From an uncultured virus (IMG/VR IMGVR_UViG_3300037517_002797) (Duplodnaviria; Heunggongvirae; Uroviricota; Caudoviricetes): a DNA stretch of 64,000 bases. Positions within the stretch are counted from its first letter, which is position 1; each line of letters opens with the position of its first letter. Made by a program: the position numbers and the translations under genes. This document shows positions 44,206-64,000 of this stretch, in pieces. The DNA lies in the IMG/VR virus record IMGVR_UViG_3300037517_002797; one strand, written 5' to 3'. Under the pieces are notes generated by a model that was not told where the DNA came from, made no database searches, and worked only from the letters and a program-made list of their open reading frames with translations.

Positions 44206-44224
44206 AATTTTAAGTAGAGGAACT

Positions 44225-44827: not shown

Positions 44828-44878
44828 AGAAGCAGGCATCTTAAGACACAGTAAGACTAGCGAAAGGTACATCATCAA

Positions 44879-46330: not shown

Positions 46331-46796
46331 TGAAGAAATGGTTGGGCAAGATCCGACTGACTACCCATCATTAGACAACAATGGCGTAGTTTGGGACAAA
46401 GCTACTGAAACATGGGTGGTTGAAAACGGTTCTTCAGCTCATTGTCATTTGTACGGTCCTCCAGTAGAAAGACTCCCTCGTGGAGAAACTCATCTTGTAT
46501 GGGACAGCCCGACAGATGTTGCGCATTCAGACACAGTAAAAAAGTACGATAGTGGCGCAGACTACGAGTACCACAAGACACAGTTGCACGCGCACATGTA
46601 CGTGTTGGGATTCTCTGACGATGAGATTGACCGTCTTACTGTAGATGACCTAATTCATAAGGTCCGTGAAGTGTACAAGTACAAGCAAGTTGCACACGAG
46701 CTGGCAGGCCAAGTTTACATCAAAAGAAAAAACATTGCTATGGTTAGAGGTATCCGAAGAGCAAATCACAGAATTCAGGTTGCCAGCCGTGGATAA
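46323..46796 (+). CDS. hypothetical protein
   Basis: Overlap-coupled ORF. Confidence 0.65.
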   Translation: MNSEEMVGQDPTDYPSLDNNGVVWDKATETWVVENGSSAHCHLYGPPVERLPRGETHLVWDSPTDVAHSDTVKKYDSGADYEYHKTQLHAHMYVLGFSDDEIDRLTVDDLIHKVREVYKYKQVAHELAGQVYIKRKNIAMVRGIRRANHRIQVASRG

Positions 46797-49126: not shown

Positions 49127-49138
49127 TAGAATACGCTT

Positions 49139-50065: not shown

Positions 50066-50915
50066 CAATGTAGAAGCCGAGCACCTTGGTGGAGGCGTCG
50101 TACTGTTTCGCAATGCAATATCTTTTGACGTCGCCTGGGCAGTTCAGTTTGCAGAAGAACAAATTAGCAAAGAACGTGAAGAAATGTACACTAAAGCTGT
50201 AGACCCAGAAACTGGAGAACCAGCATACTTAAATAAAAGCGGATACTACTTTAAAGCATACGGTGTTGACATAATGCCTCGCAGGGGTTCGCAAATACAC
50301 GGAACAAGCCGCGACGATGTTCGCGATTTTATTGAAGCTGTCGAGCGCGCTAAAGACGAGTATCTTTTAAAGTACTTCGTGCTGTTTCCAATTGCGTATA
50401 AAAATGTGTGGTGGAAAGTCAAAGGTCACCTTGTCTCGTATTCCACACAATACGGAGGAAGCTTTTTAGGCCCGCACTCTGATACAAGTGCCGACTACGC
50501 TTACGGCTATCCGCACCCCGGCAACCAACTCGCTACAAGAAATAGTGTTTCTTGCGTCGTGTACATCAACGATGATTTTGATGGTGGTCACCACTACTTT
50601 AATTACTTAGACATAGACTACAAGCCAAACTCAGGCGACATTCTTATGTTTCCAGCAAACTACATGGCTTCACACGAAGTAACACCGATCATTAACGGAA
50701 GCAGATACTCGTATCTTGGTTGGTATGCGCAGGGTTCTCCAAATAAAGAAGTTAATGAGCATATAGTAGATCCAGCAACTGATCCAGAACTTGCTAAAAC
50801 GGCAACAAACGTGTACATGCCGACTCTTCGCGAAGACTTTAAAAATTATTTAGACAGTATAGACCATGACAAATCTTCTCACGCCTATCAATTAGTAGAA
50901 AGAATGAGCTCATGA
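50055..50915 (+). CDS. 2OG-Fe(II) oxygenase, paralogue group A
   Basis: HSD...YINDDFDGG...HEV...R. Confidence 0.88.
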   Translation: MLNNNVEAEHLGGGVVLFRNAISFDVAWAVQFAEEQISKEREEMYTKAVDPETGEPAYLNKSGYYFKAYGVDIMPRRGSQIHGTSRDDVRDFIEAVERAKDEYLLKYFVLFPIAYKNVWWKVKGHLVSYSTQYGGSFLGPHSDTSADYAYGYPHPGNQLATRNSVSCVVYINDDFDGGHHYFNYLDIDYKPNSGDILMFPANYMASHEVTPIINGSRYSYLGWYAQGSPNKEVNEHIVDPATDPELAKTATNVYMPTLREDFKNYLDSIDHDKSSHAYQLVERMSS

Positions 50916-51676
50916 ATGCTGTTCATTTAGGAAACGGAATTGTGTATTTTAAAGACGTGTTTACCTTTGACAACGACTACTTTAGTAGTTTTGTTGAAAG
51001 ACTGCACGACACTGATAGGCGCCACGAACAGGTAGTTGCTAAAGAAGACGAAGCGTACGTGCTTACAGAGGGCGGATACAGGATCACAAGAAATGATGCA
51101 GACTACGCGCCGCGCCGTTTTTCTAAACTGACTAACTTAAATCAAGAAGATAAGAAGTTTATTGAAGAAGTTAGAGATGCAATCCACTCGTGTGTAGTTG
51201 AGTACTGCAAGGTTTTTCCAATAGTGATTGAAAACATAAGATGGGCAACAAACGGATACGTCATCAAATATGAAAACGGTCAGTCAATTGGCGCCCACTC
51301 TGACTGCAATATTGCATACGCCGAAGATGGAGTAACTCCTGTTAACTCGTTTCCAATGCAAAACATTCTTACTTGTGGGCTGTTCTTTAATGACGATTTT
51401 GAAGGCGGCACAGTGTCATACAGGCCGTGGGGCATTTCAGTAAGACCAAAGCCTGGATCAGTTCTTATATATCCTTCTTCATACATGGGTTGCCACGAAG
51501 TTGCCGCAGTCACTGAAGGCACACGGTACGCATACCTGTGTTGGTACGGTCAGGGACCAATAAATAGCTCAGACCATCGTATGACAGATCAAATAAAAAA
51601 AGAAACTGGGTACGAAACAGTCAATACAAATTCAGCTCAAAGATTTGTCCCAGTAGGGGCGATCAAGCTTTCTTAA
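50912..51676 (+). CDS. 2OG-Fe(II) oxygenase, paralogue group A
   Basis: HSD...FNDDFEGG...HEV...R. Confidence 0.88.
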   Translation: MNAVHLGNGIVYFKDVFTFDNDYFSSFVERLHDTDRRHEQVVAKEDEAYVLTEGGYRITRNDADYAPRRFSKLTNLNQEDKKFIEEVRDAIHSCVVEYCKVFPIVIENIRWATNGYVIKYENGQSIGAHSDCNIAYAEDGVTPVNSFPMQNILTCGLFFNDDFEGGTVSYRPWGISVRPKPGSVLIYPSSYMGCHEVAAVTEGTRYAYLCWYGQGPINSSDHRMTDQIKKETGYETVNTNSAQRFVPVGAIKLS

Positions 51677-52694
51677 TTTCTTGAGCAGTGTGACTTTGCC
51701 CGTATTGCGTTACACATCTGTTTTGAAACACTGGGTTAATCCCATGCTCAAGTTCTGTAGCATTTAAAGACCAAATGGAGTACTGAGACTTGCAATACAT
51801 TTCGTAGTCGTCGTAGATACTGTCAAACCACACAGGTGGACACCATTCTCTACTTTCTGAGCTTTCTACTATGTTGATGTGCGCGCTTTCGTCGTTTCCA
51901 CCCTGGCCAAAAAATGTTAAGTATGCATACCGCGTACCGCCATTCATTTTTGTTACGCCGTGTGCTGCAATGTAGTTTGTAGGAAAAAAGATGATGTCAC
52001 CTTTTTTAGGAATGTACTCTACATTTGCGTGTGGAAATTTTAGATGCCCTCCTGAAAAGTTTTCTCCATCGAGCTCTTCTTGCGTTTCTACTGAGTCATT
52101 AAAATACGCAAGAGCCCCTGCGGTCTGCCTCGCGGCGACCATACCTCGTGGCATATAGCGAACTCCACCAGTGACTTTATAGTTTGTGTCATTGTCTTGG
52201 TGCCATCCTAAGACTCCACCGCTGTCGTATCGAAGAACGTGCCCCCGTGTCTTCCACCACAGGCTTCCTACGACAAGAGGAAACATATCAATATACTTAA
52301 TAAGGCACTTGTATATTGAGTCTTCTAGCCCAACAAAATAGTCTACAATATCTTTAGGTGTTTCGTAAACAACTGGAGCAAGAATTCGCGTAGGCGCGTT
52401 TGGCACATCTTCAAGACGGTACCTAAACCCATCTTCGTTTATTCCGTACTCAACTCCGTCTTCTCCAACAGCGTATGACCATCTATCTTTGCCAATTTCA
52501 TATGCTCGACGATCAATGTAGTCTAAAGCGTACTTTTCTACGCTAAAGGCATCGTGAAATACAACCAAACCACTGCCTAGGTCTGTGTATTGAAGCTTAC
52601 TTATCTCTAAAAGCTCAGCTTCTCCAATTTTTGGAGTAGACGGCAGCACTGGCCATTTGTCAAAGTCAGCAGGTGGTTCTGAAAAATTTTGCAT
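51663..52694 (-). CDS. 2OG-Fe(II) oxygenase, paralogue group A, inverted
   Basis: HQD...YFND...GG.L.F...HGV...R; AGAGGA RBS. Confidence 0.88.
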   Translation of the reverse strand: MQNFSEPPADFDKWPVLPSTPKIGEAELLEISKLQYTDLGSGLVVFHDAFSVEKYALDYIDRRAYEIGKDRWSYAVGEDGVEYGINEDGFRYRLEDVPNAPTRILAPVVYETPKDIVDYFVGLEDSIYKCLIKYIDMFPLVVGSLWWKTRGHVLRYDSGGVLGWHQDNDTNYKVTGGVRYMPRGMVAARQTAGALAYFNDSVETQEELDGENFSGGHLKFPHANVEYIPKKGDIIFFPTNYIAAHGVTKMNGGTRYAYLTFFGQGGNDESAHINIVESSESREWCPPVWFDSIYDDYEMYCKSQYSIWSLNATELEHGINPVFQNRCVTQYGQSHTAQEIKKA

Positions 52695-52760
52695 ATGTCC
52701 TCTATTCAATACTATACGCTGTTACCAATTTTACACTGGTTATCGAGATAATATGAATGA

Positions 52761-53606
52761 ATGGCAATCAAAAAGAGCAAAACTTCTAGCAAGGCTACGC
52801 CAGACGAGACCGGCAAAATAGTCATATCAAATGAAGAGCTTAAAAGCTGGAATCTGTATATCGCAGTTCCATGCTATGACAACACTGTTACAGAGCCGTT
52901 CATGATGTCACTTATAAAGTCAATGCTGACATTTACAAATATAGGTCTAAAGACAAGTGTAAGCACTTTAGCGGATTCACTGATCTCAAGGTCAAGAAAT
53001 ATGCTTGTAGCAAAGTTTATGGCAAATCCAGAGTACACTCATTTGCTTTTTATTGACTCAGATATATCGTTTGAGTCCGACTCTATTCTCAAGTTGCTGT
53101 GGCACAATAAAGACGTAATTGCTGGAGCGTACCCGGTAAAAGAAATAAACTGGGAAAAGACAGAAGCTATGGTACGCGAAGGAATTCCGATAAGGCAGGC
53201 AGTAAAAGAATCTGCACGGTTTGCTTTTAGCGCAATAGAGCCTGGCCAAACAAAAGTAGACATCTCAGATGGAGCAATATCTGCGTACGACCTTGGTACT
53301 GGATTTATGCTTATTAAGCGAAGCACAATTGAAAAAATGATTGAAGCATTCCCTGAACTTAAGTATGTAGATGACACTGGCGGACTGAGTTCTGAAGAGA
53401 AAAAGTACTCGTACAATTTTTTCAATCCGCATATTGACTCTCGCCAGCGGTATCTTTCAGAAGACTACGCTTTTTGCAGATACTGGCAGCAACTCGGAGG
53501 AAAGACGTGGCTTGATCCTTCAATTGATTTAGTGCACACTGGCCGGTTCAAGTACAGTGGAAGCGCCAATTCGTACGTCAATAGTATTATGACAATGCCA
53601 AAATGA
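52761..53606 (+). CDS. GT-A fold glycosyltransferase-like protein
   Basis: IAVPCY, SLISRSRN, FIDSD, GTGFMLIKR, SEDYAFC..W. Confidence 0.75.
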   Translation: MAIKKSKTSSKATPDETGKIVISNEELKSWNLYIAVPCYDNTVTEPFMMSLIKSMLTFTNIGLKTSVSTLADSLISRSRNMLVAKFMANPEYTHLLFIDSDISFESDSILKLLWHNKDVIAGAYPVKEINWEKTEAMVREGIPIRQAVKESARFAFSAIEPGQTKVDISDGAISAYDLGTGFMLIKRSTIEKMIEAFPELKYVDDTGGLSSEEKKYSYNFFNPHIDSRQRYLSEDYAFCRYWQQLGGKTWLDPSIDLVHTGRFKYSGSANSYVNSIMTMPK

Positions 53607-55342
53607 AAATTGCAGTCTACACAATAGCACTAAATGAAGAGCAGTTCGTCGAGCCGTGGTTCAATTCTGCTAAAAACGCTGACTATTTGCTAATTGCGGA
53701 TACAGGCTCAACTGATGGCACAATTGAAAAGGCACGAAAGCTTGGCATTAATGTTGTACAAATTTCAGTAAAACCTTGGAGATTTGACGACGCTAGAAAC
53801 GCATCACTTGCGCTGATACCACCTGACATTGATATATGCATTGCGCTTGACATGGACGAAGTCTTTGTTGAAGGCTGGCGAGATCATCTAGAAAATATGC
53901 CAAAGGAAACAACAAGACCACGCTACAAATATGTGTGGAATTGGAACCCAGACGGAACAGAAGGCCTGGTGTACGGCGCGGATAAAGCGCATGCACGCCA
54001 TGGCTACCGCTGGGTTCACCCAGTGCACGAGGTGCTTTCACCAACTAACGATGAATTTCAAGCTTGGATTGGTATGGAAGTTCATCATCATGCTGATTCT
54101 TCAAAGTCCCGCGGACAGTATCTTCCTCTGCTTAAGAAAGCTGTTGACGAACGCCCGAATGACGATAGAAACGCTTACTACTACGCTCGTGAATTATTCT
54201 TCTATGGAAAGAATGACGAGGCTGTAACAGAATTCAAGCGTCATTTAGCCCTACCGACAGCGCAGTGGCGGCCAGAGCGAGCAGCGTCAATGCGGTACTT
54301 AGCAAAGATAGAACCGCACGAGGCAGAGACGTGGCTTCTTCGCGCTGCGGCAGAGGCGCCCGACTCCCGTGAGCCGTGGGTTGAACTTGCGTTTCATTAC
54401 TACACGGCAGGCAAGTGGGAAAACTGCGTGTCATCAGCAAGGCGCGCGCTAACAATTAAAGAAAAGCCGCTGGTATACCTTAATGACGCATCTGCATGGG
54501 GAGCTCTTCCTCATGACCTTGCGGCAATCTCGTCGTGGAATATTGGAAACAAACACGAGGCTATTTCGTATATACGAGACGCGCTTAAGTTTGAACCAAA
54601 CAACGAAAGACTGCAGTCAAACCTTGCGATGATGCTTCGCGAGACGTATCCTGTGCAGGTTACAGCAGTGATTCCAACAAAGTCAAACGTGGCCGGTGCG
54701 TTAGCTGTAATTGAAAAGCTGCAAAACGACCCACAGGTTATTGAAATTGTTGTGGTTGCAGACGGACCAAATGCGCATGCAACATACAAGAAAGTTCTTA
54801 AAGATAAAGAAAAAGTAACGCTAAAGAAAGTTGACTTAGCTGTTGGAATTCACGTCATGTGGAACATCGGAATTGCTGTGTCTGCCAGGAACAACACCGC
54901 AACGGCCTTTGTAAACGACGATGTAGTTCTTGAAGATAACTGTATTGGCTCACTTGCCTCGCTTCTTGAGTATGACAAGAGTCTTGGACTAACATCTCCG
55001 CTGTATGACTATAGAAAGTTTACTGACATAACTCAGGACGTGACATCAACAAGCAACGGCAGAACTGATGGCAGTGGCGGACTTGGTGGATTTTGCATGG
55101 TGCTTCCAGAAGACCTGACAAAAGAATGGCGCTTCGACGAGTCAATGAAGTGGTGGTACGGAGACGACGATGTACTTATGTGGTGCAACACAACAAAGAA
55201 GCGCCGCGGAGTACTGACGTGCATTACAAGATGCAGTGGAAATCGGTCGCTCACGATTGCAACCGATCCTCCACCTAACTTTAGAGAAGTAGTACAAGAC
55301 GATAAGCTTAAGTTCTACATCAAATGGAATTTGGAGGCGTAA
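53603..55342 (+). CDS. GT2 glycosyltransferase with TPR repeats and second GT-A domain
   Basis: IALNEE, DTGSTDGT, FDDARN, LDMDE, VHE; TPR helices; C-terminal VNDD...WYGDDD. Confidence 0.85.
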   Translation: MKIAVYTIALNEEQFVEPWFNSAKNADYLLIADTGSTDGTIEKARKLGINVVQISVKPWRFDDARNASLALIPPDIDICIALDMDEVFVEGWRDHLENMPKETTRPRYKYVWNWNPDGTEGLVYGADKAHARHGYRWVHPVHEVLSPTNDEFQAWIGMEVHHHADSSKSRGQYLPLLKKAVDERPNDDRNAYYYARELFFYGKNDEAVTEFKRHLALPTAQWRPERAASMRYLAKIEPHEAETWLLRAAAEAPDSREPWVELAFHYYTAGKWENCVSSARRALTIKEKPLVYLNDASAWGALPHDLAAISSWNIGNKHEAISYIRDALKFEPNNERLQSNLAMMLRETYPVQVTAVIPTKSNVAGALAVIEKLQNDPQVIEIVVVADGPNAHATYKKVLKDKEKVTLKKVDLAVGIHVMWNIGIAVSARNNTATAFVNDDVVLEDNCIGSLASLLEYDKSLGLTSPLYDYRKFTDITQDVTSTSNGRTDGSGGLGGFCMVLPEDLTKEWRFDESMKWWYGDDDVLMWCNTTKKRRGVLTCITRCSGNRSLTIATDPPPNFREVVQDDKLKFYIKWNLEA

Positions 55343-55343
55343 C

Positions 55344-55868
55344 ATGCACGGCGCGGTAACTCAGTGGTTTGGCTATTCACTTAGTCAGATTGCGGCTCGA
55401 GAGAGTATAAAGAAAACTGGGAACAACGTTCTTGAGATCGGAAGTCTTGACATTAATGGCAGCATTAAGTCAATGTTCAGTGAACTTACTTCTGAAGGTG
55501 GATCATACCTTGGAATTGATCTTCAAGAAGGCCCTGGTGTAGACATTGTTGTTGACGGGGTGGCGTTTAGAAGCGATACACCGTTTGACATCATCGTGTG
55601 TGCTGAGGTATTTGAGCATACTCCAGTATGGCCGTCAATCATTGCTAATGCGTACAACCACCTTGTTCCCGGTGGATTTTTCATTGCAACGATGGCAGGA
55701 GAAGGACGACCACCTCACTCAGCTATAGATGAGAATCCAATTCGTAGTTGGGAATACTACAAGAATGTTACAGCAACAGAATTAGCGCAGTACCTGCAGA
55801 TATTCGCAGATGGCGAAGTAAACGTCCAAGACACCGATACTAGGTGCTGGGCTGTGAAGCAGTCTTAA
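55344..55868 (+). CDS. SAM-dependent methyltransferase
   Basis: VLEIGS.DING, YLGID...GPGVD, FDIIVC.EVFEH, L.PGG. Confidence 0.85.
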   Translation: MHGAVTQWFGYSLSQIAARESIKKTGNNVLEIGSLDINGSIKSMFSELTSEGGSYLGIDLQEGPGVDIVVDGVAFRSDTPFDIIVCAEVFEHTPVWPSIIANAYNHLVPGGFFIATMAGEGRPPHSAIDENPIRSWEYYKNVTATELAQYLQIFADGEVNVQDTDTRCWAVKQS

Positions 55869-56385
55869 GCTTTTTTACTTTCTTTTCTTTAGCTTTTTCT
55901 TTTTCGTTCTTTTTCTTTTCATCACGCGTTTCACGGTCAGAGTGGTACGCAGTTACGGCGTTAGCGCTAGTGCGGCTACGCCACACGAACTGGCACTCAT
56001 CACAAACTACAAGCTTCATTTTTGTCCACCGTCCGCCTTCTGGTGAGTCAGCAACAACTACCCTAAGCTTATTAGGGCGACCACCGCAATGAGGGCAGTT
56101 TGGAAATCTTTTACGTCTAACTTCTTGGCCAGTGTATGAAACGGACAATGCACGACGAAGTTCTCCTTCATCTTTTCCACCCCACACGCCATGTATTTGT
56201 TTATTTTCAAGAGCCCACTTAAGGCATTGACTTCTTACTGGACATGTGTAGCATAAGTTTTTAGCTGCGTACTTTTCTTTTGGAACTTTTGAGAACCAGT
56301 ACTTCTTAATGTGTGCGTTTTCTGGCTGTGCGCATGCGGCATCGTCCATCCACGCCACGTCGCTCAAGCCTCCAGGCTTTTTCAC
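55840..56385 (-). CDS. whiB: WhiB family regulator with C-terminal zinc ribbon
   Basis: WMDDAAC, AKNLC.TCPV...C, GVWGG; then CPHC...CDEC and basic tail. Confidence 0.85.
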   Translation of the reverse strand: MKKPGGLSDVAWMDDAACAQPENAHIKKYWFSKVPKEKYAAKNLCYTCPVRSQCLKWALENKQIHGVWGGKDEGELRRALSVSYTGQEVRRKRFPNCPHCGGRPNKLRVVVADSPEGGRWTKMKLVVCDECQFVWRSRTSANAVTAYHSDRETRDEKKKNEKEKAKEKKVKKLKTASQPST

Positions 56386-56720
56386 GTAATTTCAACCCAC
56401 ACAACCTCGTGAATTGAATCAACAATGTCACCAAGCTGTGTTTCGCCATCTTCGTTGCACGCATACTTTTCGTGCGAACCGTCAACCGTACCTGCGTAAC
56501 CGTAGCTTGTCTTTGCATTTTCTATCTTTTTGAAAGCGTCACCAAGAGAATCAACTACTCCGTCGCGTTGAATTGCAGATGCGAGCGCTCGTTTGACTAT
56601 CTCGTGCTCAGTGTCAACGTGATCTTCTGTGTAAAAGACGACAGTAGAACTATTATAAGTTCTGTAGCCTTCTCCAGACCATTCTGACCATAGGCACTCG
56701 CCTTTTCTTGAATCCTTCAT
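56382..56720 (-). CDS. hypothetical protein
   Basis: GTGA coupled to whiB. Confidence 0.7.
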   Translation of the reverse strand: MKDSRKGECLWSEWSGEGYRTYNSSTVVFYTEDHVDTEHEIVKRALASAIQRDGVVDSLGDAFKKIENAKTSYGYAGTVDGSHEKYACNEDGETQLGDIVDSIHEVVWVEIT

Positions 56721-56836
56721 GCGTATAGCATTGTATCTCGCATTCTAGTGATTCCTGGTCACGTCTAATTTATAGATGCTTAGACGACTATCACACCATT
56801 TTTAAGAGCTTCTAGTGAATGTAGAAGCGTCTCAGA

Positions 56837-57343
56837 TTAGTTTGCGTAGCCGTCCTGATGAGGCCATAAGTAGTCGTAGGTTGGTGGCTGCTCACCAGTG
56901 TCCTCTGGCCAACCAAACTGCTTGTACCACTCATAATTTTTGCAAAGCAGCGCGGTGCGGTGAGTAGAGCACAAATCTGCGTAGTACTTTGCATCTGCCA
57001 TCCATGGTGGAACAATTAGCTCTGACGATATGCGACCAAGCTCAAGAGCCTTGTCGTAGGTGCGGTACGTCTTATCAAGAAGTGTTGACTTGTAACCGCG
57101 CGAGATCCACTCAAAGTATGTCGCTGAGATGTACGAAACAAATAGCGTCTCGTAGCCGCGCCACATACGGACAACTGGATGGTTTGTCCAGCCTTTAGGC
57201 TCGCGATGCTCGTTGTTCGGGTCGAGCTTGCACATTGTCATAAGGCACTGCCATGCCTCGAGCGTCTGCTTATGCAGTCGCTTATTGTCGAGATGATGGG
57301 CCGTAAGCTCGAATGACTCGGTGTTTGTAAGAAATGATTGCAT
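56837..57343 (-). CDS. MSMEG_6728-like protein (pyrimidine dimer glycosylase superfamily)
   Basis: MQSFL...LD.KRL.KQ..E..Q, W.NHP.V.MW.G, PPW, HR..LL.K...Y, Y.WP. Confidence 0.8.
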   Translation of the reverse strand: MQSFLTNTESFELTAHHLDNKRLHKQTLEAWQCLMTMCKLDPNNEHREPKGWTNHPVVRMWRGYETLFVSYISATYFEWISRGYKSTLLDKTYRTYDKALELGRISSELIVPPWMADAKYYADLCSTHRTALLCKNYEWYKQFGWPEDTGEQPPTYDYLWPHQDGYAN

Positions 57344-57411
57344 GTAGCCGTCCTTTGTCGTTGGCTACATTATACATCATTAGTGGCCATTTTTTGTGAC
57401 CAACCAAAGTA

Positions 57412-58659
57412 CTAGCTTTCTTTTGTGTAGTACTTCTTCTTAACTGCCTGGCGGCTAAAGCCTTTGTCTGTATTGACTAACCACTCGCGGTCGCCGATTA
57501 GTTCGCCCTGCGGGCCATTTGGCTGTCCTTCAAGTGATGCCTTTGCAGCGTCAGCAATCCATTCAGCGGCCTGTACTGCAACTGCCTTGCCCCAAGTTGC
57601 AGACAACGGCGAGTAGTCTTTTGCGGCAGCGAATTCCCAGTCGTCTGGAAGACCCTGCAGTCGTGCAGCTTCGCGGTGAGTAATGCGACGCTCGAGTGTT
57701 GGGTGGATCACGTGATCAAGTGCACCGCCTGTCATAACGTGCGCCCACGAGTTTCCATCCCAACGGCACGGCATCGTAAATCCCATGTTGAAGTCACTGG
57801 CACGAAGCTTTTCTTCTTGTGCAAGCCAAGCCTGTGGAAACTGGTCGTTGTTCTTTGCGACAGCTTCTCGAAGCGCCTTGCTTACTGGAGTCATTGGCTT
57901 CCAACCATCGTTTCCAAGAATGTCAAAGATTTCTTTGATGCGCTGTCCTTCAAGGTTTGTTTTGTTGATGTGTCCGTCAACTACGCCACTTTCATTGCGA
58001 AGGTGCTCAACAAACTTTGATGGAGCCTTTCTGTACGGCTGCGGATCCCATGACATGTCGAGATCCTCAAGGTCACCAATTACGTCCATCATTGTTGGCA
58101 TTTCTGCTGGTGCAATTGCCTCTGCACCGAATGGCATTCCTTTTTCAACAGCAGTCCAGAAGTAACGCATGCGGTATGAAAAACCACCAACCTGAAGGTT
58201 GTTCATCTTGACATGGTACAGGTCATATTCTTTTCCAGAAAGCTCTTCAACCATGTCGCGGTACTTAATCATTGCATCGCGCCCTTGAGTAAGCGCCTGT
58301 TGCACGCATTCAAAGATAATCATCTTCGGCTTGATGCGCGCGGCGTACTTCATAAATGCGCGAGTGTGCTCGTGTGCCTTTGCGTCAGGACCGCGGTTTG
58401 CAGGGCCAGACCACACCGACCAACCAGAGCATGGAGGGCAGCCAAGTACGATGTCGGCTTTGTTGTCTGGCCATTCATTTGGATCATCTGAAAAGAATGA
58501 AGACCAGTTGTCGCCAAGATGCTTGCGGTTTAGCTCAGCAACACGGTTGCCAAAGTTCAAAGTTCCTGTGCGGACATTCATATCAATGCCCTTGTTTACA
58601 AAGCCAAGGCTCATAAAGCCAGCGAGGCCGTTGCAGTCGTTAAAAGTAAATTCTGACAT
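57412..58659 (-). CDS. C5-cytosine DNA methyltransferase homologue with non-canonical cofactor motifs
   Basis: GCPPCSGWS (IV), FECV (VI), RMR (VIII), REAARLQG.PD (IX), GKAV (X). Confidence 0.85.
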   Translation of the reverse strand: MSEFTFNDCNGLAGFMSLGFVNKGIDMNVRTGTLNFGNRVAELNRKHLGDNWSSFFSDDPNEWPDNKADIVLGCPPCSGWSVWSGPANRGPDAKAHEHTRAFMKYAARIKPKMIIFECVQQALTQGRDAMIKYRDMVEELSGKEYDLYHVKMNNLQVGGFSYRMRYFWTAVEKGMPFGAEAIAPAEMPTMMDVIGDLEDLDMSWDPQPYRKAPSKFVEHLRNESGVVDGHINKTNLEGQRIKEIFDILGNDGWKPMTPVSKALREAVAKNNDQFPQAWLAQEEKLRASDFNMGFTMPCRWDGNSWAHVMTGGALDHVIHPTLERRITHREAARLQGLPDDWEFAAAKDYSPLSATWGKAVAVQAAEWIADAAKASLEGQPNGPQGELIGDREWLVNTDKGFSRQAVKKKYYTKES

Positions 58660-58719
58660 GTGTTCTCCGTTGTTGCCGTTTATTCAACTGTATCCGGTGA
58701 CGCCAGAAAAAGTGGTAAC

Positions 58720-59001
58720 TTACTTTTCGCCTACTTCGTACCCGCAGGCAGCGTAGCCAGCGATATCTACCCAGGTATCTGGTTGGAATCCAGACTTAGA
58801 AGCGTATCTGGCCACTTTTACAGCAACCATCGCCATAGCAACATCTTCTTGAGTAACTTCAATTCCAAAGATTACTGACCATAGTTTGGCAATTCTTGTA
58901 AAGTTCTCTTCTGGACCGCCGTACTGCGCATCGCGCTGGCCAGTGATAATCGTGGCTGCTTCGTCCAAACAGCGAGTTCTTCCATTCTTAGCTTTCGTCA
59001 T
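58720..59001 (-). CDS. DUF6378-like protein
   Basis: L.EA..II.G.R...YG....NF.RIA.LW...VA..M...K.AR...D.WVD.AGY. Confidence 0.8.
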   Translation of the reverse strand: MTKAKNGRTRCLDEAATIITGQRDAQYGGPEENFTRIAKLWSVIFGIEVTQEDVAMAMVAVKVARYASKSGFQPDTWVDIAGYAACGYEVGEK

Positions 59002-59191
59002 TTTCTACCTTTGTTCTTACATATACTGTTGCTTTATAGTCATTTGACGCCGATGGCTCAATGTGTATTTCGGTATCATGCGGAAGTTCAATTTCGTCGT
59101 TTTCCATAAATTCTTTCCAATTTCTCAACGCCTGCTCTTTTATCTCTTCTAGCGTTGATCCAAATACTTCAAATTCAATTGCTGCTCTCAT
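58988..59191 (-). CDS. small acidic protein
   Basis: Coupled in operon. Confidence 0.65.
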   Translation of the reverse strand: MRAAIEFEVFGSTLEEIKEQALRNWKEFMENDEIELPHDTEIHIEPSASNDYKATVYVRTKVENDES

Positions 59192-59427
59192 GCGAGTGCT
59201 CTTTTCTCCAGTGAGTATGGTGAGTGATGTGTTTCTGGTAATTCTGGAAGTATGCCATCAATGCTGCGAACAATCACGTCGCCTCCACCAACTGCAAGTA
59301 CTTCGCAAAAGCGTCCGTTGTGTATTTCTCCAACGACACCTTGGTATGCGTTTAGTTTGACGCGAACAATGTCGCCAACGTTTGTATCTTTTAGCGATAC
59401 TTCACTCCAAGTTACTTCTGAGGACAT
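59188..59427 (-). CDS. small SH3/KOW-like protein
   Basis: VGDIVRV...G..CEV pattern; GGAGG RBS. Confidence 0.55.
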   Translation of the reverse strand: MSSEVTWSEVSLKDTNVGDIVRVKLNAYQGVVGEIHNGRFCEVLAVGGGDVIVRSIDGILPELPETHHSPYSLEKRALA

Positions 59428-59873
59428 TGCGCCTCCGGGCATGTTGAAGTGTCAAAGTCGTCAAGAGCTCGAGTGCATGTGCTGCACTTTACGCCGTCAG
59501 CTTTGACCTTGTATCCTTTAAGTTGACGCTGTCTGTTTACTTCCATTTTGTTGACGTAGTACTCATCAAGTTGCTCGTCAGTTCCACCTACAGCACAAAT
59601 GATATTGGCAACGAAGTGAAGAATATCTACGCATTCCTTGACTACTGCATCACGGTTTACATATGGATCATCATGTTGCCAAGGCTTCCATGAGATTTCC
59701 TTGCGAACTTCCGCAAGCTCGTCGTCAATCGCAAGCATGTTCCAGCGCAGGTACTCGATGATGTTGTTGAGCTTGTACGGTTGATCGCCTTCAAACTTAT
59801 GATAAATGACTCCGTACGCTTCTTCTTGAAGCTCTTTTGTTTTCTTGAGCCAATCGTTGAATAGTATGCCCAT
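59412..59873 (-). CDS. all-alpha dNTP pyrophosphatase (dimeric dUTPase/MazG-like)
   Basis: DELAE...WKPW...ECVDILHF...Y..K...N..RQ..GY. Confidence 0.8.
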   Translation of the reverse strand: MGILFNDWLKKTKELQEEAYGVIYHKFEGDQPYKLNNIIEYLRWNMLAIDDELAEVRKEISWKPWQHDDPYVNRDAVVKECVDILHFVANIICAVGGTDEQLDEYYVNKMEVNRQRQLKGYKVKADGVKCSTCTRALDDFDTSTCPEAQCPQK

Positions 59874-60877
59874 TAGATTCCTATCTCTCCTTTTAGATGA
59901 TTTACTGCGTGTACAGGGTTGCGAACCACGTTGACATATTGCTCTCGCTGAGCAACTGCAATTTCATATCTATCAAGCGCCGACATTTCTTCTATTCCAG
60001 CCGCTAGATGATTCCAGTCTTTACCGATAGTTGAGCTAATGCGCCACTCTGTTGCAATTGGAGTAAGCGCGTTCATTGCTTGAATAAACAATGGAGACCA
60101 CCACAACAACTTATCATTGTGTGGACCGATAAGCACTCCAAGTGAGTTTGACACTTTTTCAACAACGTGCTCGTCTGTCCAGGTTCTGCTTTCTTTGGCT
60201 ACGTCTGTTGGGTACATTAAATGTTCAGCAGTGTCAATGCACCATTTAGCCTTCGTGTTTCCAACAATCCAATAGTTCTGCCTGTTCTTTAGTGCCATGC
60301 CGTCTTCAATAAATATTGAATCAAGGTTTACGCCAGAGAAAGAACTGTTCATTGACTCTGGAATACCTGGAGAGTCAGACACGCTCTGATCTACTGGAAG
60401 CTTTGGGTAGATAGTTTTTGGCCATTTTTCAGAAAGCAATATTTTTGCTCCAGCGATCACTTTGTCTTTTGATTTTTTATTTTGCGTGACTTCTTTGAAT
60501 TCTTTTCTTGACGAGTATAGTTGCTTTACCAACCGCGAGTTTTCTTTGTCAATTGACCTAAGGCTCGCATGGATCTTAGTAGGCTCTGGCGCATCTACAA
60601 ATAGTCTAAGCTTTTTACTTCCATACAGTGTGGCAATTAGCGCAAGAATTCCGTATGTCTTGTTTGCAGTCATACTGAGCATCGGTGCAACGCCTGCAAG
60701 AACTACGTCATACTCGTCAAAATCTTTTTTTGTCCACAAAACGCTAGGGTCTGCCCAAACAACCTCGTGCCCGTCTTTAGTAAGAGCATAGTCAATTGAA
60801 CCGGCAAAAGAAAAGTTTCGCCGACTTAAAGCCTGTGAAGATTGCGACGCAGTCATTCCGCATATTAGCACTTTCAT
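59873..60877 (-). CDS. putative GT-B glycosyltransferase-like protein
   Basis: MKVLICG, GHEVVW, YDVVL, late QAM...TPI; operon context. Confidence 0.45.
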   Translation of the reverse strand: MKVLICGMTASQSSQALSRRNFSFAGSIDYALTKDGHEVVWADPSVLWTKKDFDEYDVVLAGVAPMLSMTANKTYGILALIATLYGSKKLRLFVDAPEPTKIHASLRSIDKENSRLVKQLYSSRKEFKEVTQNKKSKDKVIAGAKILLSEKWPKTIYPKLPVDQSVSDSPGIPESMNSSFSGVNLDSIFIEDGMALKNRQNYWIVGNTKAKWCIDTAEHLMYPTDVAKESRTWTDEHVVEKVSNSLGVLIGPHNDKLLWWSPLFIQAMNALTPIATEWRISSTIGKDWNHLAAGIEEMSALDRYEIAVAQREQYVNVVRNPVHAVNHLKGEIGI

Positions 60878-61605
60878 ACTAGGTCACCGTTCTTGCTTGC
60901 AATGTACGCAGACGGTATCCCGACATCAAAAGCTTTGACATCATACAGATGCGTTGGCCATCGCATAATTGTATTTAGGTATGGACCAATTTTCATTTCA
61001 GAAGACTCTTTGCGATTAGCCCATTCATTTGACAGTATGTCAAAAGCTCTGCTTGTTTGAAATACTACTGGACCGCACCATACCTTTACGTTTCCATCAA
61101 TCCAAATATCGTCTATTCCGACTGCTGTTCCTTCAACAAACTTATAGTTTTCGTTGTCGTTTTGCGCGTGCTGGATTCTTGTAAACCGAGAAGCCTGCTC
61201 AAGAGTCACTGTTCGGACTCCGATTGCGTCGGTCTGGTTTACTCTACTGTTAAAAGCCATGTCAACTACAATGTCTTGATCCATCACATTGTCGCTCATA
61301 AGCAGCATTGTTTGATCGTGAACCGCGTCAGACAGTCCGATCATTGTCGCGTGTCCTGGCCCTGCTGGTTCTTCTTGAACAACAAGTCGTACCCATTTTG
61401 AATACGAAGAAAGCGCTTCACTAATGTCGTTGTAGTTTGCACTAGAAGCAACAACAGTTACTCGCTCAACTCCAGAAGCAGAGGCGTATTCAACAGCATA
61501 AGCAACCAAAGGCATGCCATTGATCTCAAGCAGAGGCTTGTAGAACGGCTTTGCCAGTCCTTCCATACGCTGACCACGGCCTGCGGCAAGGATTACTGCT
61601 TCCAA
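60874..61605 (-). CDS. sugar-phosphate nucleotidyltransferase
   Basis: AVILAAGRGQRM, KPLLEING.P, QEEP.G.GHA, DVG.P. Confidence 0.85.
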   Translation of the reverse strand: MEAVILAAGRGQRMEGLAKPFYKPLLEINGMPLVAYAVEYASASGVERVTVVASSANYNDISEALSSYSKWVRLVVQEEPAGPGHATMIGLSDAVHDQTMLLMSDNVMDQDIVVDMAFNSRVNQTDAIGVRTVTLEQASRFTRIQHAQNDNENYKFVEGTAVGIDDIWIDGNVKVWCGPVVFQTSRAFDILSNEWANRKESSEMKIGPYLNTIMRWPTHLYDVKAFDVGIPSAYIASKNGDLV

Positions 61606-62111
61606 CGCCAGTCCTGCTTTGCCCAGATGAAGTCCCAGCCTGCTTCTTCTGCAGGACCTTTTCCTTCAATTCTGTCGTCAATGTACACACCAGACGAGTC
61701 AAGGCTTTCAAGTATTTCCTTGCGAGCGTCAGTTGTAACACTTGCAGCTACGAGATTGTCAGCATTAAGTCCAAGCTCTTGAAGTATCACAGTTGCAGTT
61801 GCTTTTGCAGCGCCAGTGACATAAAAAACTCGAGCTCGCATATCGTGCTCAAGCGCACGCATAATTTCAGCAAACGGAAGCGCATTCTTTAGTGCCGCGC
61901 CTGCGCGAAGTACCTCGATGTACGCCTCTGTCTTCTTTTCATGAAGCCTGCGAGCTTTTTCGTGCGACCCAACCGCAGAAGGCAGCCATGTCTGCCACGG
62001 GTGGCCCCAGGCTTGCATCGGCATTTCAATTCCAACGTACTTGTAAGACTCGATGACTAAGCTTCGAGAGTCAACGAGAACTCCGTCAATGTCTGAACAC
62101 CATGTTGCCAT
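61593..62111 (-). CDS. HAD superfamily phosphatase
   Basis: DIDGVLVDS, VTG, YIDD. Confidence 0.85.
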   Translation of the reverse strand: MATWCSDIDGVLVDSRSLVIESYKYVGIEMPMQAWGHPWQTWLPSAVGSHEKARRLHEKKTEAYIEVLRAGAALKNALPFAEIMRALEHDMRARVFYVTGAAKATATVILQELGLNADNLVAASVTTDARKEILESLDSSGVYIDDRIEGKGPAEEAGWDFIWAKQDWRWKQ

Positions 62112-62113
62112 AC

Positions 62114-62875
62114 TTAATTCCTTTCAATAGCTCTGTGTAGTACTTCAATTACGCGAGGCAGCGAGTCGGGTATGTTTCGTTTGACATACGGAATTGCACG
62201 CATTACGTGAACAACCGCCCATGCCTCTCCAACCTCAAATAGCTCTTCATCATTTACAATGTCTGCAATGTCATTGTGGCTGTACGCAAGCATTCCATTG
62301 TTGTACTTGGCGTGCTCCCATCCATAGGCGCTTTGAAGCATTTTGCCAACATCAACAGCAGGAGAGTCTGGTACGACTTCAGTTGCTCTGATTGGATCAA
62401 TCAACACGTTGCCATAGCCAAGACGAAACATGACATTTTCTGCCGTAGGATCCCCGTGAGTCAATGCATGCTTGAGTCTGTACGCGCCTACAGCCGCTTT
62501 TGTTGCGTCTGCAATGATAGCGTCGGCTGCAGTGCTACTGATAAGTCCAGAAAGATGACGATCAATAGTTGCTTGCATCTTTTCTTTAAGAAGATTATGT
62601 GTGTTTGTCGTTGGCGGAACCACCGCGGGCTGCGACCACACATGGCGAAGAAGAGCTACGTGAACAAATGAGTTGTCAATATTCCAGTAGTCAATGTACT
62701 CAAGCTTTTCCATGACATAGCCATCGTCAAGAAGACTGACAATGCTTGGAAAAACATGACTTCCATGCTGAATGATCCATTCGCCTTGCTCGCGTGTTCG
62801 CTCTGGAATTCCACCTGACTTGGTAACAGTGCCATCGCCATTATCAATGACAATGGCGCCAGATAGACCCCTCAC
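62114..62875 (-). CDS. APH/choline kinase-like phosphotransferase
   Basis: GLSGA, Y.ME, HGDPT.ENV, LIDP, DVGKM.QS. Confidence 0.8.
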   Translation of the reverse strand: MRGLSGAIVIDNGDGTVTKSGGIPERTREQGEWIIQHGSHVFPSIVSLLDDGYVMEKLEYIDYWNIDNSFVHVALLRHVWSQPAVVPPTTNTHNLLKEKMQATIDRHLSGLISSTAADAIIADATKAAVGAYRLKHALTHGDPTAENVMFRLGYGNVLIDPIRATEVVPDSPAVDVGKMLQSAYGWEHAKYNNGMLAYSHNDIADIVNDEELFEVGEAWAVVHVMRAIPYVKRNIPDSLPRVIEVLHRAIERN

Positions 62876-64000
62876 GAGAAAGCGCTTTCAATCAATATCT
62901 CTGCACTCTTGCGTGGATCATTTCGTGTCCTAAGTACTTCGCGGTTGTGCTTTGCGATACTAAAGCGATCAGCATCTGAAATCTCAAGACATTGTTCAAA
63001 CGCTTCTTTGCACTTGCGAATAATCTCAAGGCCGTCTTCTTTAACCAATCGTGATTGCGTTGGCGATCCTTTGTACCAGTCAAGAACAAGCATTCTGAAC
63101 TGTGGATCAGATAAGTGACCTGGGACAATGCACATTGCACCAGCGTCTGCTGCCTCGAGCGACGAATACTCAACAAGTCCTCGTGCAAAATTGTGCGCAG
63201 TAAGGTTCATGTGAACACGGAACCTTGATGCAATAGCTGCTGAGTCCATGTAGTTTCCAAGATAGCGAACTAGCGCGTGTCCAGGAATTCGTGCGTCCCA
63301 CGGGTAAGGCGTGATGATGTTTCCATCAGCGCCCTTTGTTGGATCAACACGCTGAGCATAGCGTTTTGTCTGCGCTCCAAAGTGGTCACGAAGTTGCTCG
63401 TAGACAATGTATGTTGGCGATGGACCAAGCCCTACTGAACACGATCCCCAGATTTCAACAGTGACGTGCTCTGGAAGCTGTGCGCCGGCCAATGCAACAA
63501 CTGGCTGTCCCTTGTTGTATATGAAGCGCCCAGAGGTGCCAACAGTCCAGTCATTTGTTATCGGCGCGTCAATGTCAAACTTTGGAATGTATGGCATGCA
63601 GCCTTTGATCCAGTCCATTGACTTAAAAAGCTCATTGCTATCTCGAGCAGAGTCATCGCTCATCGTGACGAGTTTTGCGCCTCGTGACGGCGACTCAAGA
63701 AGCTGCGGCACGAATGGAATGTCTTTTTCTGGATAAAACGATCCATGAAGTGACGTAGTCCACTTTGTCTTTGTTCTGCGCAATGCATCAACGTATTCTG
63801 GAAGCACTGGCTGGCCAGTCTTCGCGGATTCTTTGATTGCTGTTTTGTCGTGCAATGGCACCTTAATTTCAGGAAGCACAATCATGTCATAGGTGTCAAG
63901 CGTCTCAACAAGATGCGCTGTCTTTACAACAACATCTGGCGCTTCACTCCACCATCGGCCACCTGGTTGTGGCTTTCCCCAAGATGCTCGGGTCTTTCCA
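62872..64000 (-). CDS. putative GT-B glycosyltransferase, 5' end outside window
   Basis: Frame open to window edge; SGRF..NKG, EYSSLEAADAG. Confidence 0.6.
   Translation of the reverse strand, partial: GKTRASWGKPQPGGRWWSEAPDVVVKTAHLVETLDTYDMIVLPEIKVPLHDKTAIKESAKTGQPVLPEYVDALRRTKTKWTTSLHGSFYPEKDIPFVPQLLESPSRGAKLVTMSDDSARDSNELFKSMDWIKGCMPYIPKFDIDAPITNDWTVGTSGRFIYNKGQPVVALAGAQLPEHVTVEIWGSCSVGLGPSPTYIVYEQLRDHFGAQTKRYAQRVDPTKGADGNIITPYPWDARIPGHALVRYLGNYMDSAAIASRFRVHMNLTAHNFARGLVEYSSLEAADAGAMCIVPGHLSDPQFRMLVLDWYKGSPTQSRLVKEDGLEIIRKCKEAFEQCLEISDADRFSIAKHNREVLRTRNDPRKSAEILIESAFS

Follow-up and report, generated by a model that had tools for sequence, protein, structure and literature searches.

The motif X asparagine of DNA cytosine-C5 methyltransferases is replaced by lysine in a protein, here called MTK, that is encoded within a 64,000-nucleotide stretch of DNA from an uncultured virus (the window). 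What does a protein with this fold and an altered cofactor site do? The initial annotation proposed a natural cytosine carboxymethyltransferase or, more loosely, some other non-methyl transferase. We compared MTK with known C5 enzymes in sequence, predicted structure and gene surroundings, and the looser proposal is the one we prefer.

A phage-only branch of the cytosine-C5 methyltransferase fold

MTK is specified by a single open reading frame (ATG start, 415 amino acids; Table 1), with a GGAG-like site upstream of the start; its source is a lake actinobacterial phage. Residues 58–372 match Pfam family PF00145 (DNA_methylase) with an E value of 8.6e-23 and 81.7 bits, versus a cut-off of 22. 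As this match starts only at residue 58, motif I lies outside it. The NCBIfam dcm model TIGR00675 scores 43 bits, below its cut-off of 100.65. The AF2 model of MTK (mean pLDDT 95.2) comprises a Rossmann-like catalytic domain and a target-recognition domain, and its top Foldseek matches are DNMT1, MET1, ZMET2, 3g7u, M.HaeIII and M.HhaI, with a probability of 1.00 for DNMT1, MET1, 3g7u, M.HaeIII and M.HhaI. Both Foldseek and the family profile match the target-recognition domain to the DNA enzymes DNMT1, MET1 and ZMET2. The same profile retrieves M.HaeIII (1.7e-25), the phage carboxymethyltransferase CmoX (8yf3, 3.8e-15) and the tRNA enzyme 6fdf (6.6e-6). MTK therefore resembles M.HaeIII (1DCT), M.HhaI, the prophage enzyme 3G7U and DNMT1/MET1 in Pfam family, fold and motifs IV, VI (Glu), VIII and IX, and its target-recognition domain is like that of DNMT1/MET1. 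It differs from these canonical enzymes in belonging to a virus-only family.

Related loci were sought with the single MTK protein and a 12-sequence sub-alignment as queries. The family comprises 140 clusters at 50% identity (E 1e-30 or better), and its Atlas clusters are 98–100% viral. When one genome was searched for each of 185,579 species, a single true member was found. The MTK subfamily is thus a deep, phage-only branch of the DNA cytosine-C5 methyltransferase fold. Its cultured carriers are the Gordonia phages Phendrix, GodonK, Sixama and GMA2 and the Micrococcus phage Kurnik. Megablast of window positions 55000–62000 against phages returned no match. Papers on carboxymethylcytosine, on Gordonia phage DNA modification and on HMUDK with cytosine methyltransferases yielded no literature on this family; we found no paper on phage Kurnik and none on hydroxymethylcytosine (hmC) in actinophages, and the literature searched reports no DNA analysis for any phage of the family.

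Table 1. MTK, its motifs and neighboring genes, in window coordinates
Feature	Position	Strand	Basis
MTK, C5-cytosine methyltransferase-fold gene	57412..58659	-	ORF, PF00145, AF2 model, Foldseek
Motif I, altered, DCNGLAG, residues 8-14	58618..58638	-	Translation; HaeIII and SpCmoX alignments
Motif II site, Gly32 in place of Glu	58564..58566	-	hhalign pairs G32 with SpCmoX E47
Motif IV, PPC 75-77 (58429-58437) and Ser78	58426..58437	-	Catalytic Cys77
Motif VI, ECV 117-119, Glu117 retained	58303..58311	-	Translation, family alignment
Motif VIII, RMR (RxR) 163-165	58165..58173	-	Translation, family alignment
Motif X, WGKAV 356-360, Lys358 codon 57586-57588	57580..57594	-	Translation, phmmer, hhalign
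Small class I SAM-methyltransferase-fold gene near MTK	55344..55868	+	PF13489 E 1.6e-8
MazG / dUTPase_2-type all-alpha NTP pyrophosphohydrolase, candidate dCTPase	59412..59873	-	PF08761 E 2.1e-11; phrog_18650
hyp334, GT-B fold glycosyltransferase, no Pfam family	59873..60877	-	AF2, Foldseek
Nucleotidyltransferase	60874-61605	-	Pfam
HAD hydrolase	61593-62111	-	Pfam
APH-type kinase	62114-62875	-	Pfam
hyp337, second glycosyltransferase-like protein	62872..63885	-	Language-model neighbors

Conserved replacements in the cofactor site

Conservation was assessed in three sets of sequences: a family alignment (the 146-row counts refer to the query plus 150 representatives at 50% identity, non-gap rows only), 121 close relatives of 60–95% identity, and an alignment (A1) of 64 diverse relatives. 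The set used for base flipping and attack on C6 is conserved, namely Cys77, Glu117, Arg163/Arg165, motif IX and the target-recognition domain. In the family alignment, Cys occupies the Cys77 site in 123/124 non-gap rows, the motif VI Glu is present in 141/142, and the first and second Arg of RxR are present in 143/146 and 146/146, respectively. The PPC nucleophile motif, motif VI Glu and RxR, which the initial annotation described as intact, are indeed all present in MTK and are kept in at least 97% of relatives.

All residue classes that line the methyl-transfer and cofactor site, by contrast, have been exchanged for others that are in turn conserved. MTK lacks the FxGxG SAM loop of motif I, with Asn10 at the place of the canonical Phe and Leu12 at that of the first Gly; among the 64 diverse relatives, position 10 is Gln in 36, Asn in 14 and Phe in 1. 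Ser78 stands where HaeIII has Gln, and Ser is found there in 108 of 122 non-gap rows; the motif reads GCPPC in MTK and GNPPC in most of the family. The Asn of ENV gives way to Ser (131/142) or Cys (7/142), which together account for 138/142, with Cys in MTK. At motif X, the Asn of GN(A/S)V is replaced by Lys358. Lys occupies this site in 139/146 non-gap rows and in 121/121 close relatives, and Arg in only 3/146.

The placement of Lys358 is consistent across methods. By phmmer and the family profile, its partners are the Asn residues of the M.HaeIII GNAV and 3g7u GNSV motifs, and hhalign (probability 98%) sets it opposite Arg350 of SpCmoX, a residue given as the equivalent of HhaI Asn304 in the CmoX paper (PMC12783734). 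The equivalence on which the initial annotation depended is therefore confirmed at the level of alignment, and, judged from the sequences compared, the motif X Lys is a family trait and not a chance substitution.

Compared with canonical enzymes, then, MTK has lost the motif I Phe and first Gly, the post-Cys Gln, the ENV Asn and the motif X Asn, and the conserved swaps in its family are Phe to Asn/Gln, Gln to Ser, ENV to E(S/C)V and Asn to Lys. The MTK clade has an additional swap in motif II, where the Glu that binds the cofactor ribose is replaced by Gly32. This Gly is present in 121/121 close relatives. Among diverse relatives, Glu occupies the site in 32/64, and its overall share lies between about one half and two thirds. 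N10, G11, L12 and A13 are each found in 114/114 non-gap rows of the 121 close relatives; the fixation of these residues and of G32 indicates that the pocket region is under selection, without decay. DNMT3A, which has a basic residue at motif X, retains canonical motifs I–III and ENV. The departures DCNGLAG, ECV and WGKAV pointed out in the initial annotation are thus present in the MTK translation and recur in the family-wide alignment, and its view that base activation is kept while the cofactor pocket is remodeled agrees with the conserved catalytic set and the changed pocket residues. In most of the wider family, the Glu of motif II is retained along with a G-x-A-G loop, which means that an adenosine-containing cofactor, possibly SAM, may still bind.

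Hydroxymethylcytosine genes and a proposed reaction of MTK

The surroundings of the MTK gene resemble the glucosyl-hmC pathway of phage T4 (gp42, gp1, gp56, Cd, and the alpha- and beta-glucosyltransferases). The family is accompanied by a ThyA-fold enzyme with a characteristic Asp, a kinase-like ORF, dCMP deaminase, an all-alpha NTPase, and GT-B proteins resembling BGT and AGT. A ThyA-fold gene was found in 36 of 37 large family-bearing records, that is, in 5/5 plus 31/32 IMG/VR records of at least 57 kb, and in all 24 of the latter that are at least 90% complete. In each of the 35 ThyA-fold genes read in relatives, Asp replaces the Asn of thymidylate synthase, and the best PDB match of the DSL-LC01 protein is the CMP 5-hydroxymethylase MilA (E 2.2e-18), with Asp opposite Asp. 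A P-loop kinase-like ORF, read by eye, lies beside the ThyA-fold gene. For the MTK phage itself, an IMG/VR contig (L067) that is 100% identical to window positions 55355–64000 extends past the window end, where it encodes dCMP deaminase and then the C-terminal 101 residues of a ThyA-fold protein, the Asp site falling beyond the contig edge. The dCMP-hydroxymethylase-type gene of this phage, seen by its C-terminus, hence lies just past the window end.

Several genes upstream of MTK may belong to the same pathway. In DSL-LC01, Phendrix and Sixama, a homologue of the MazG-type gene occupies the equivalent position upstream of MTK, and hyp334 also has homologues in these three. The AF2 model of hyp334 (mean pLDDT 90.7) matches SenB in Foldseek with an E value of 1.9e-6, and its highest TM-score is to T4 beta-glucosyltransferase (1qkj, 0.60/0.58). 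The trio of genes at 60874..62875 probably serves sugar activation. No Pfam match was obtained for hyp337; its language-model neighbors, which serve as a lead only, are GT4 / Glycos_transf_1 clusters and a viral cluster with PF11440 (T4 alpha-glucosyltransferase), and Micrococcus phage Kurnik encodes a homologue. Unlike the T4 pathway, the MTK module is made up of distant or unnamed proteins, and it belongs to a phage that is not T4-like and has an actinobacterial host. To our knowledge, T4 has no partner with the C5-methyltransferase fold.

From these data, the phages of the family appear to replace C by hydroxymethyl-C, and the replacement would be complete. One limit on the counts is that a single replication-module order is common to all contexts, and hence the records are not independent; the co-occurrence of MTK and the ThyA-fold gene may largely reflect common descent.

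Given this context, we tentatively regard MTK as a putative non-standard C5 enzyme of the hmC pathway, a reading to which we assign slightly less than even weight. The subfamily would be a fixed part of a T4-like hmC replacement module of actinobacterial phages. MTK would then neither methylate C with SAM in the ordinary way nor use carboxy-SAM, and would probably catalyze some different reaction at C5 in phage DNA, one that supports the hmC state. In such a reaction, Cys77 would add to C6 of the flipped base. The enlarged, Lys-bearing pocket could hold a non-SAM one-carbon or other donor, with the outcome that residual unmodified C is converted after replication. Alternatively, it could accommodate hmC's own 5-CH2-OX group, which would then be substituted or eliminated. 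Canonical C5-methyltransferases deprived of SAM are able, in vitro, to add aldehydes to C and to exchange or remove the 5-CH2OH of hmC. With somewhat more reserve, we suggest that the Lys-pocket family could be a new kind of C5 enzyme that transfers no methyl group and acts through Cys–C6 chemistry, either by installing a hydroxymethyl or other group or by exchanging 5-CH2-OX.

The family is of interest as a large, virus-restricted group in which the cytosine-attack machinery is kept next to a conserved non-canonical cofactor site, and which is linked to genomes where unsubstituted cytosine is expected to be scarce or absent. New C5 chemistry, if true, would extend the known reactions of the C5-methyltransferase fold, might provide a new tool enzyme for labeling C or hmC, and would give a counterpart in nature to SAM-free side reactions that have so far been observed solely with canonical methyltransferases in vitro. 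Since there are cultured carriers with non-pathogenic hosts (Gordonia terrae phages and Micrococcus phage Kurnik), the question is open to testing now.

How does this proposal compare with a simpler one, in which MTK is an ordinary SAM-dependent cytosine-5 methyltransferase with a divergent cofactor site, making 5mC on whatever unmodified C is available? Envisaged targets are residual C in phage DNA, phage DNA more generally if replacement is partial, and host DNA. Membership in PF00145, the full set of catalytic residues, and the retention of the G-x-A-G loop and, in many diverse relatives, of the motif II Glu all speak for such an enzyme. Moreover, a basic residue at motif X is compatible with methylation. 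M.MedI N377K still gives >99% protection and full methylation with SAM (PMC12015181), and DNMT3A/3B carry a natural basic residue, which in mouse DNMT3A is Arg887, at the site of DNMT1 N1580 and the M.HhaI Asn; the cofactor of DNMT3A is nonetheless AdoMet (PMC13594970). A basic motif X residue is accordingly not diagnostic. However, the engineered enzymes M.MpeI N374K and M.MedI N377K, which share with MTK a Lys at the motif X Asn site, have a single swap in a canonical SAM pocket, whereas in MTK the whole pocket differs. Four separate pocket positions have been changed and then conserved, and plain SAM use needs none of these changes. At all four adenosine contacts of CmoX, the MTK clade lacks the Phe, Glu and Asp equivalents. 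In addition, nearly all phages in which the family is found carry a dCMP-hydroxymethylase-type gene, and cytosine C5 should mostly be occupied in them. We therefore consider ordinary methylation a serious but rather unlikely explanation.

It is improbable, in our view, that MTK is no usual DNA-modifying catalyst at all, whether a Dnmt2-like tRNA methyltransferase, a base-flipping or DNA-binding accessory protein presenting hmC to glycosyltransferases, or a factor directed against host C-containing DNA. Large tRNA arrays do lie a few kb from the family gene in cultured carriers, and, by analogy with T4, a cytosine-specific protein could tell host DNA from hmC phage DNA. Yet conservation of the Cys, Glu and RxR at the level noted above argues for catalysis, and a role on RNA is at odds with the large target-recognition domain like that of DNMT1/MET1/ZMET2 and with the weak profile match to 6fdf.

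Carboxy-SAM as a proposed donor

We consider it very improbable that MTK is a natural carboxy-SAM-dependent C5-carboxymethyltransferase producing 5-carboxymethylcytosine as a Lys counterpart of CmoX. Natural 5-carboxymethylcytosine and CmoX were published in December 2025 (PMC12783734), so a natural carboxymethyltransferase is in itself not a new idea any more. CmoX of Synechococcus phage S-B43 (PDB 8YF3), described in that report as a Cx-SAM-dependent DNA cytosine C5-carboxymethyltransferase, is like MTK a phage protein of the C5 fold. The two share a basic residue at the HhaI Asn304 site (Arg350 in CmoX, which contacts the Cx-SAM carboxylate (PMC12783734), and Lys358 in MTK), a Ser after the catalytic Cys, and a gene position downstream of a pyrophosphatase gene. 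The lack of Arg at the R350 site does not by itself exclude carboxymethylation, since Lys works in engineered enzymes: as stated in the initial annotation, M.MpeI N374K uses carboxy-SAM (PMC12783734 and PMC12015181), although for the companion example, E. coli Dcm N436K, a full-text literature search gave no confirmation.

The remaining comparisons with CmoX point the other way. CmoX retains the canonical TFAGGGG (motif I), NEF, SPPC and ENV, none of which is found in MTK (GCPPC in place of SPPC), and its Cx-SAM adenosine contacts F25, E47, F48 and D69 lie opposite N10, G32, T33 and N51 in hhalign and are not conserved. Identity between the two proteins is only 25% over 194 residues, and the family profile matches 8yf3 less well than M.HaeIII. 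CmoX and MTK are not mutual closest relatives, and the basic motif X residue hence looks convergent.

A source of carboxy-SAM was likewise not seen. CmoX is accompanied by CmoA and CmoY, and 4257 CmoA genes were reported on the contigs of 5615 CmoX candidates (PMC12783734), indicating that CmoX normally brings its own CmoA. With the CmoA profile TIGR00740, no match was found among the window ORFs, as the initial annotation had noted, and a wider search was also negative, with 0/42 related phage records matching (G001, four complete GenBank phages, five large close relatives and 32 diverse IMG/VR records); in phage S-B43, the positive control, CmoA was detected with an E value of 2.5e-34. CmoA is also rare in the likely host phylum, where 1/401 genomes scored over the cut-off and 4/401 at E <1e-30. 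The 64 window ORFs scanned include no asparagine-synthase-type family (CmoY-like ATP-dependent amide ligase). Together, the company of hmC genes and the lack of a carboxy-SAM source indicate that MTK is probably not a carboxymethylase. The donor originally suggested for the remodeled pocket is thus not supported, given the missing CmoA, the differing adenosine contacts and the hmC context, and the carboxymethylase idea is probably inapplicable to MTK.

Class I methyltransferases are often beside or fused to family members, which recalls the position of CmoA beside CmoX: they are fused to the MTK homologue in 8 of 24 long family members, and such genes adjoin MTK in DSL-LC01 and in L044, the record of a 35%-identical member. 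They were considered as hidden Cx-SAM synthases and rejected, as they belong to differing Pfam families and are unlike SpCmoA. The methyltransferase at 55344..55868 gave no TIGR00740 match at E values up to 0.1 and no BLASTP similarity to SpCmoA. Nor is PF13489 an obligate partner of MTK, being present in only 22/37 records and absent from Phendrix, Sixama and Kurnik.

Other associations are more sporadic. The 5-hmdU DNA kinase and the amino-acid:DNA transferase were rejected as general partners (PF18723 in 1/32 and PF18724 in 1/32 records), although the L044 member adjoins an HMUDK-like gene and ADDT, and in another family member, P0257 (919 amino acids), the helical domain of 5-hmdU DNA kinase is fused on (PF18723, E 5e-40). 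Both arrangements speak for the reading of MTK as an hmC-pathway enzyme, and their rarity counts against it. The small ORFs that flank MTK (DUF6378; 67, 84 and 112 amino acids) are conserved only in DSL-LC01.

The MTK family and its motifs

In MTK, the look-alike of C5-cytosine methyltransferases, the Pfam PF00145 match (E 8.6e-23) begins only at residue 58 and hence misses motif I. All of the motifs that the initial annotation had read in MTK are present in the translation (see table), and its equation of the WGKAV Lys with the motif X Asn was confirmed by three kinds of alignment. Against PDB sequences (phmmer), WGKAV pairs with IGNAV of M.HaeIII and IGNSV of 3g7u, and a 64-sequence family profile gives the same pairing. 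With hhalign, this profile places Lys358 opposite Arg350 (probability 98%) of SpCmoX, the carboxy-SAM (Cx-SAM)-dependent DNA cytosine carboxymethyltransferase of Synechococcus phage S-B43 (translated from GenBank MN018232); the HhaI equivalent of Arg350 is Asn304, according to PMC12783734. For the target-recognition region (residues 186–376), plant MET1 and DNMT1 (domain E 3.6e-15) give better alignments than bacterial enzymes do, a resemblance that is unusual in a phage enzyme.

A HMMER scan of 1.84 billion representatives yielded 1035 family matches at E ≤1e-3 and 140 at E ≤1e-30. Conservation was counted over non-gap rows in a MAFFT alignment of the query and the best 150 of the 1035 matches. 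In these rows, motif X has Lys in 139/146 (Arg in 3; Val, Ser, Gln and Met in 1 each), the motif IV catalytic Cys is kept in 123/124, the motif VI Glu in 141/142, and the motif VIII Args in 143/146 and 146/146. The residue after the catalytic Cys is Ser in 108 of 122 rows, and the Asn position of ENV is Ser in 131 of 142 and Cys in 7. Motif I follows the pattern D-(C/V)-(Q/N)-G-(F/L)-A-G; when aligned with HaeIII and CmoX, its Phe position holds Gln or Asn, and Phe is kept in 1/64 rows. Among the query and 120 close homologues (60–95% identity), Gly32, Cys77, Glu117 and Lys358 are invariant, and Asn10 occurs in 114/114 non-gap rows. These data show a conserved core, predicted to attack cytosine, and a putative cofactor and transfer site that is conserved yet non-canonical. 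The motif X Lys is characteristic of the family and no isolated substitution.

The distribution of the family is essentially viral. Its nearest Atlas clusters are 98–100% viral, and in a pattern scan of prokaryotes at one genome per species (185,579 species) the single true member lay on a 17.5-kb contig from a Coriobacteriia MAG. In the cultured-phage collection, 15 records contain it: 13 Gordonia phage records, Actinomycetia phage DSL-LC01 (homologue 68% identical) and Micrococcus phage Kurnik.

Probable hydroxymethylcytosine setting and the proposed role of MTK

The window belongs to a large freshwater actinophage that encodes two WhiB proteins, collagen-like fibres and a PrimPol. MTK and a dCMP-hydroxymethylase-type gene keep near-perfect company: a ThyA-fold gene (PF00303) occurs in 5/5 relatives (DSL-LC01, Phendrix, Sixama, Kurnik and a 117-kb relative) and in 31/32 diverse IMG/VR records (24/24 at ≥90% completeness), although these counts are phylogenetically non-independent, which tempers any link of MTK to hydroxymethylcytosine (hmC). 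All 35 copies read have Asp for the thymidylate synthase Asn, and PCT instead of PCH. The best PDB match of the DSL-LC01 copy is the CMP 5-hydroxymethylase MilA (2.2e-18, Asp to Asp), and the closest phage relatives of that copy carry pyrimidine hydroxymethylase annotations. For the phage of the window itself, one IMG/VR contig (L067) matches positions 55355–64000 with 100% identity across 8646 bases and extends 7.7 kb beyond; by similarity and order, the extension encodes SSB-like, RecA-like, PD-(D/E)XK, helicase, RuvC, PolA and dCMP deaminase proteins, and it terminates within the same ThyA-fold gene, of which it includes the final 101 residues. Upstream of MTK lies a GT-B protein of no Pfam family (AF2 pLDDT 90.7), one of whose best TM-scores (0.60) is to T4 beta-glucosyltransferase. 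The MTK, GT-B and MazG genes are syntenic in DSL-LC01, Phendrix and Sixama.

We scanned 24 long family members for fusions. Eight have a C-terminal class I methyltransferase domain, drawn from three different Pfam families, one has a winged-helix domain, and in P0257 the fused part is a 5-hmdU DNA kinase helical domain (E 5e-40). Another, P0218 (752 aa), contains an intervening intein that includes a LAGLIDADG domain (matches to Hint_2, LAGLIDADG_3 and Intein_splicing). A class I methyltransferase was rejected as an obligate partner of MTK (PF13489 in 22/37 records). The MAG copy, 35% identical, adjoins an amino-acid:DNA transferase (PF18724, 1.2e-7) and a below-cut-off HMUDK-like ORF. This stretch (4488–6814 of contig L044) also holds a dual-specificity phosphatase, and it suggests that the phage concerned uses amino-acid type hypermodification of a 5-hydroxymethylpyrimidine in place of glycosylation. 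Such fusions and neighbours connect the family with post-replicative steps on 5-hydroxymethylpyrimidine DNA; the 5-hmdU kinase and the amino-acid:DNA transferase are rare among carriers (1/32 each).

We tentatively propose that MTK, from a virus-only family, serves the hmC state of phage DNA via C5 chemistry that is not SAM methylation, an account that is plausible but a little short of probable. Its target would be residual C, modified with a different donor, or else the 5-CH2-OX group of hmC. According to PMC13594970, pocket enlargement in bacterial orthologues needs two motifs changed, and these are the two altered in MTK (Ser for Gln after the Cys, and Lys for Asn in motif X); the changes fit a larger or anionic group beside C5. 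However, retention of the motif II Glu in many relatives leaves room for SAM binding, and MTK might be an ordinary 5mC methylase, which we consider rather unlikely. A basic residue at motif X is permissive, not diagnostic, since M.MedI N377K and mouse DNMT3A both use SAM. The former gives >99% protection by methylation with SAM and also carboxymethylates with carboxy-SAM (PMC12015181), and the latter, an AdoMet enzyme, has a natural Arg887 at the site of DNMT1 N1580 and the M.HhaI Asn (PMC13594970). Apart from carboxymethylation, treated below, other roles share the remaining probability.

Carboxy-SAM as a donor

The initial annotation raised the possibility that MTK is a non-methyl transferase, perhaps a carboxymethyltransferase using Cx-SAM; the carboxymethyltransferase idea is already published for a clade other than MTK's. 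According to PMC12783734, S-B43 CmoX forms natural 5-carboxymethylcytosine with Cx-SAM from a phage-encoded CmoA (the Cx-SAM synthase), and Arg350 touches the Cx-SAM carboxylate. The basic residue common to CmoX and the MTK family appears, most simply, to be convergent, because SpCmoX retains canonical TFAGGGG, NEF, SPPC and ENV, its adenosine contacts F25, E47, F48 and D69 correspond to N10, G32, T33 and N51 in MTK (hhalign), and the family profile matches M.HaeIII (1.7e-25) more strongly than CmoX (8yf3, 3.8e-15). That paper counts 5615 CmoX candidates and 4257 CmoA genes on their contigs; since its definition demands Arg, the list should exclude the MTK family, which has Lys.

No Cx-SAM source was found with the MTK family in the records searched. 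Profile TIGR00740, which recovered the S-B43 CmoA gene as positive control (E 2.5e-34), found CmoA in 0/42 related records: 0/4 complete genomes (DSL-LC01, Phendrix, Sixama, Kurnik), 0/1 for the nearest related record, 0/5 for the longest five of 36 close IMG/VR loci, and 0/32 IMG/VR records ≥57 kb out of 80 diverse loci (0/24 at ≥90% completeness). In the window, where the initial annotation saw no clear CmoA-like gene, neither of the two class I methyltransferase ORFs matches TIGR00740 at E up to 0.1. Among 401 sampled genomes from the phylum of the member-bearing MAG (taken as Actinomycetota because the MAG is labelled Coriobacteriia), CmoA was over the cut-off in 1 and at E <1e-30 in 4, one of these four being an unpublished genome that enters as a count alone. 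With CmoA missing from these records and ORFs and the adenosine contacts different, carboxymethyl transfer by MTK is very improbable. Literature searches on carboxymethylcytosine, Gordonia phage DNA modification and 5-HMUDK hypermodification found no paper on the MTK Lys family, and those on hmC or dCMP hydroxymethylase in actinobacteriophages found none on hmC in these phages.

Other features of the window

Features of MTK and of the window (nucleotide positions unless marked as residues)
Feature	Position	Strand	Remarks
MTK ORF	57412-58659	-	415 aa; ATG start; GGAG-like site upstream
MTK motif I, DCNGLAG	residues 8-14
MTK PPC	residues 75-77
MTK motif VI, ECV	residues 117-119
MTK motif VIII, RMR	residues 163-165
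MTK motif X, WGKAV	residues 356-360
MazG / dUTPase_2-type NTPase	59412-59873		upstream of MTK
Nucleotidyltransferase, HAD and kinase trio			upstream of MTK
Second glycosyltransferase-like protein			upstream of MTK; candidate only
Pyrimidine-dimer DNA glycosylase (PF03013)	56837-57343	-	directly downstream of MTK; syntenic in DSL-LC01
WhiB-family gene	55840-56385	-	C-terminal extension; weak DUF6300 match
WhiB-family gene	17441-17800	-
Glycosyltransferases	52761-55342
2OG-Fe(II) oxygenase paralogues	42899-52709; 14157-15659		at least 11: ten PF13640, one PF13759
Glutathione-peroxidase-like genes	44225-44827; 48497-49126
Collagen-repeat fibre genes	28494-29186; 35547-42139
PrimPol-D5 primase-helicase	30897-33545	-
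Serine recombinase	29982-30680	+
Class I methyltransferase	23844-24629	-	261 aa
Fpg/Nei-type glycosylase	22101-22898	-
Class II (B12) ribonucleotide reductase	19562-21610	-
Fatty-acid desaturase	12153-13133	+

The 261-aa class I methyltransferase, here 33 kb from MTK, resembles the C-terminal domain fused to MTK relatives elsewhere (BLASTP E 6.7e-9 to the family representative P0165, 27% over 184 residues). Both DNA glycosylases are of base-excision type, and the phage encoding them probably carries modified cytosine.

Most of the 2OG-Fe(II) oxygenase genes form one block, interspersed with the glutathione-peroxidase-like genes and a DUF6065 gene. This block adjoins the collagen-repeat fibre genes, which suggests phage-encoded hydroxylation of collagen-like tail fibres; the glycosyltransferases at 52761–55342 perhaps glycosylate these fibres too.
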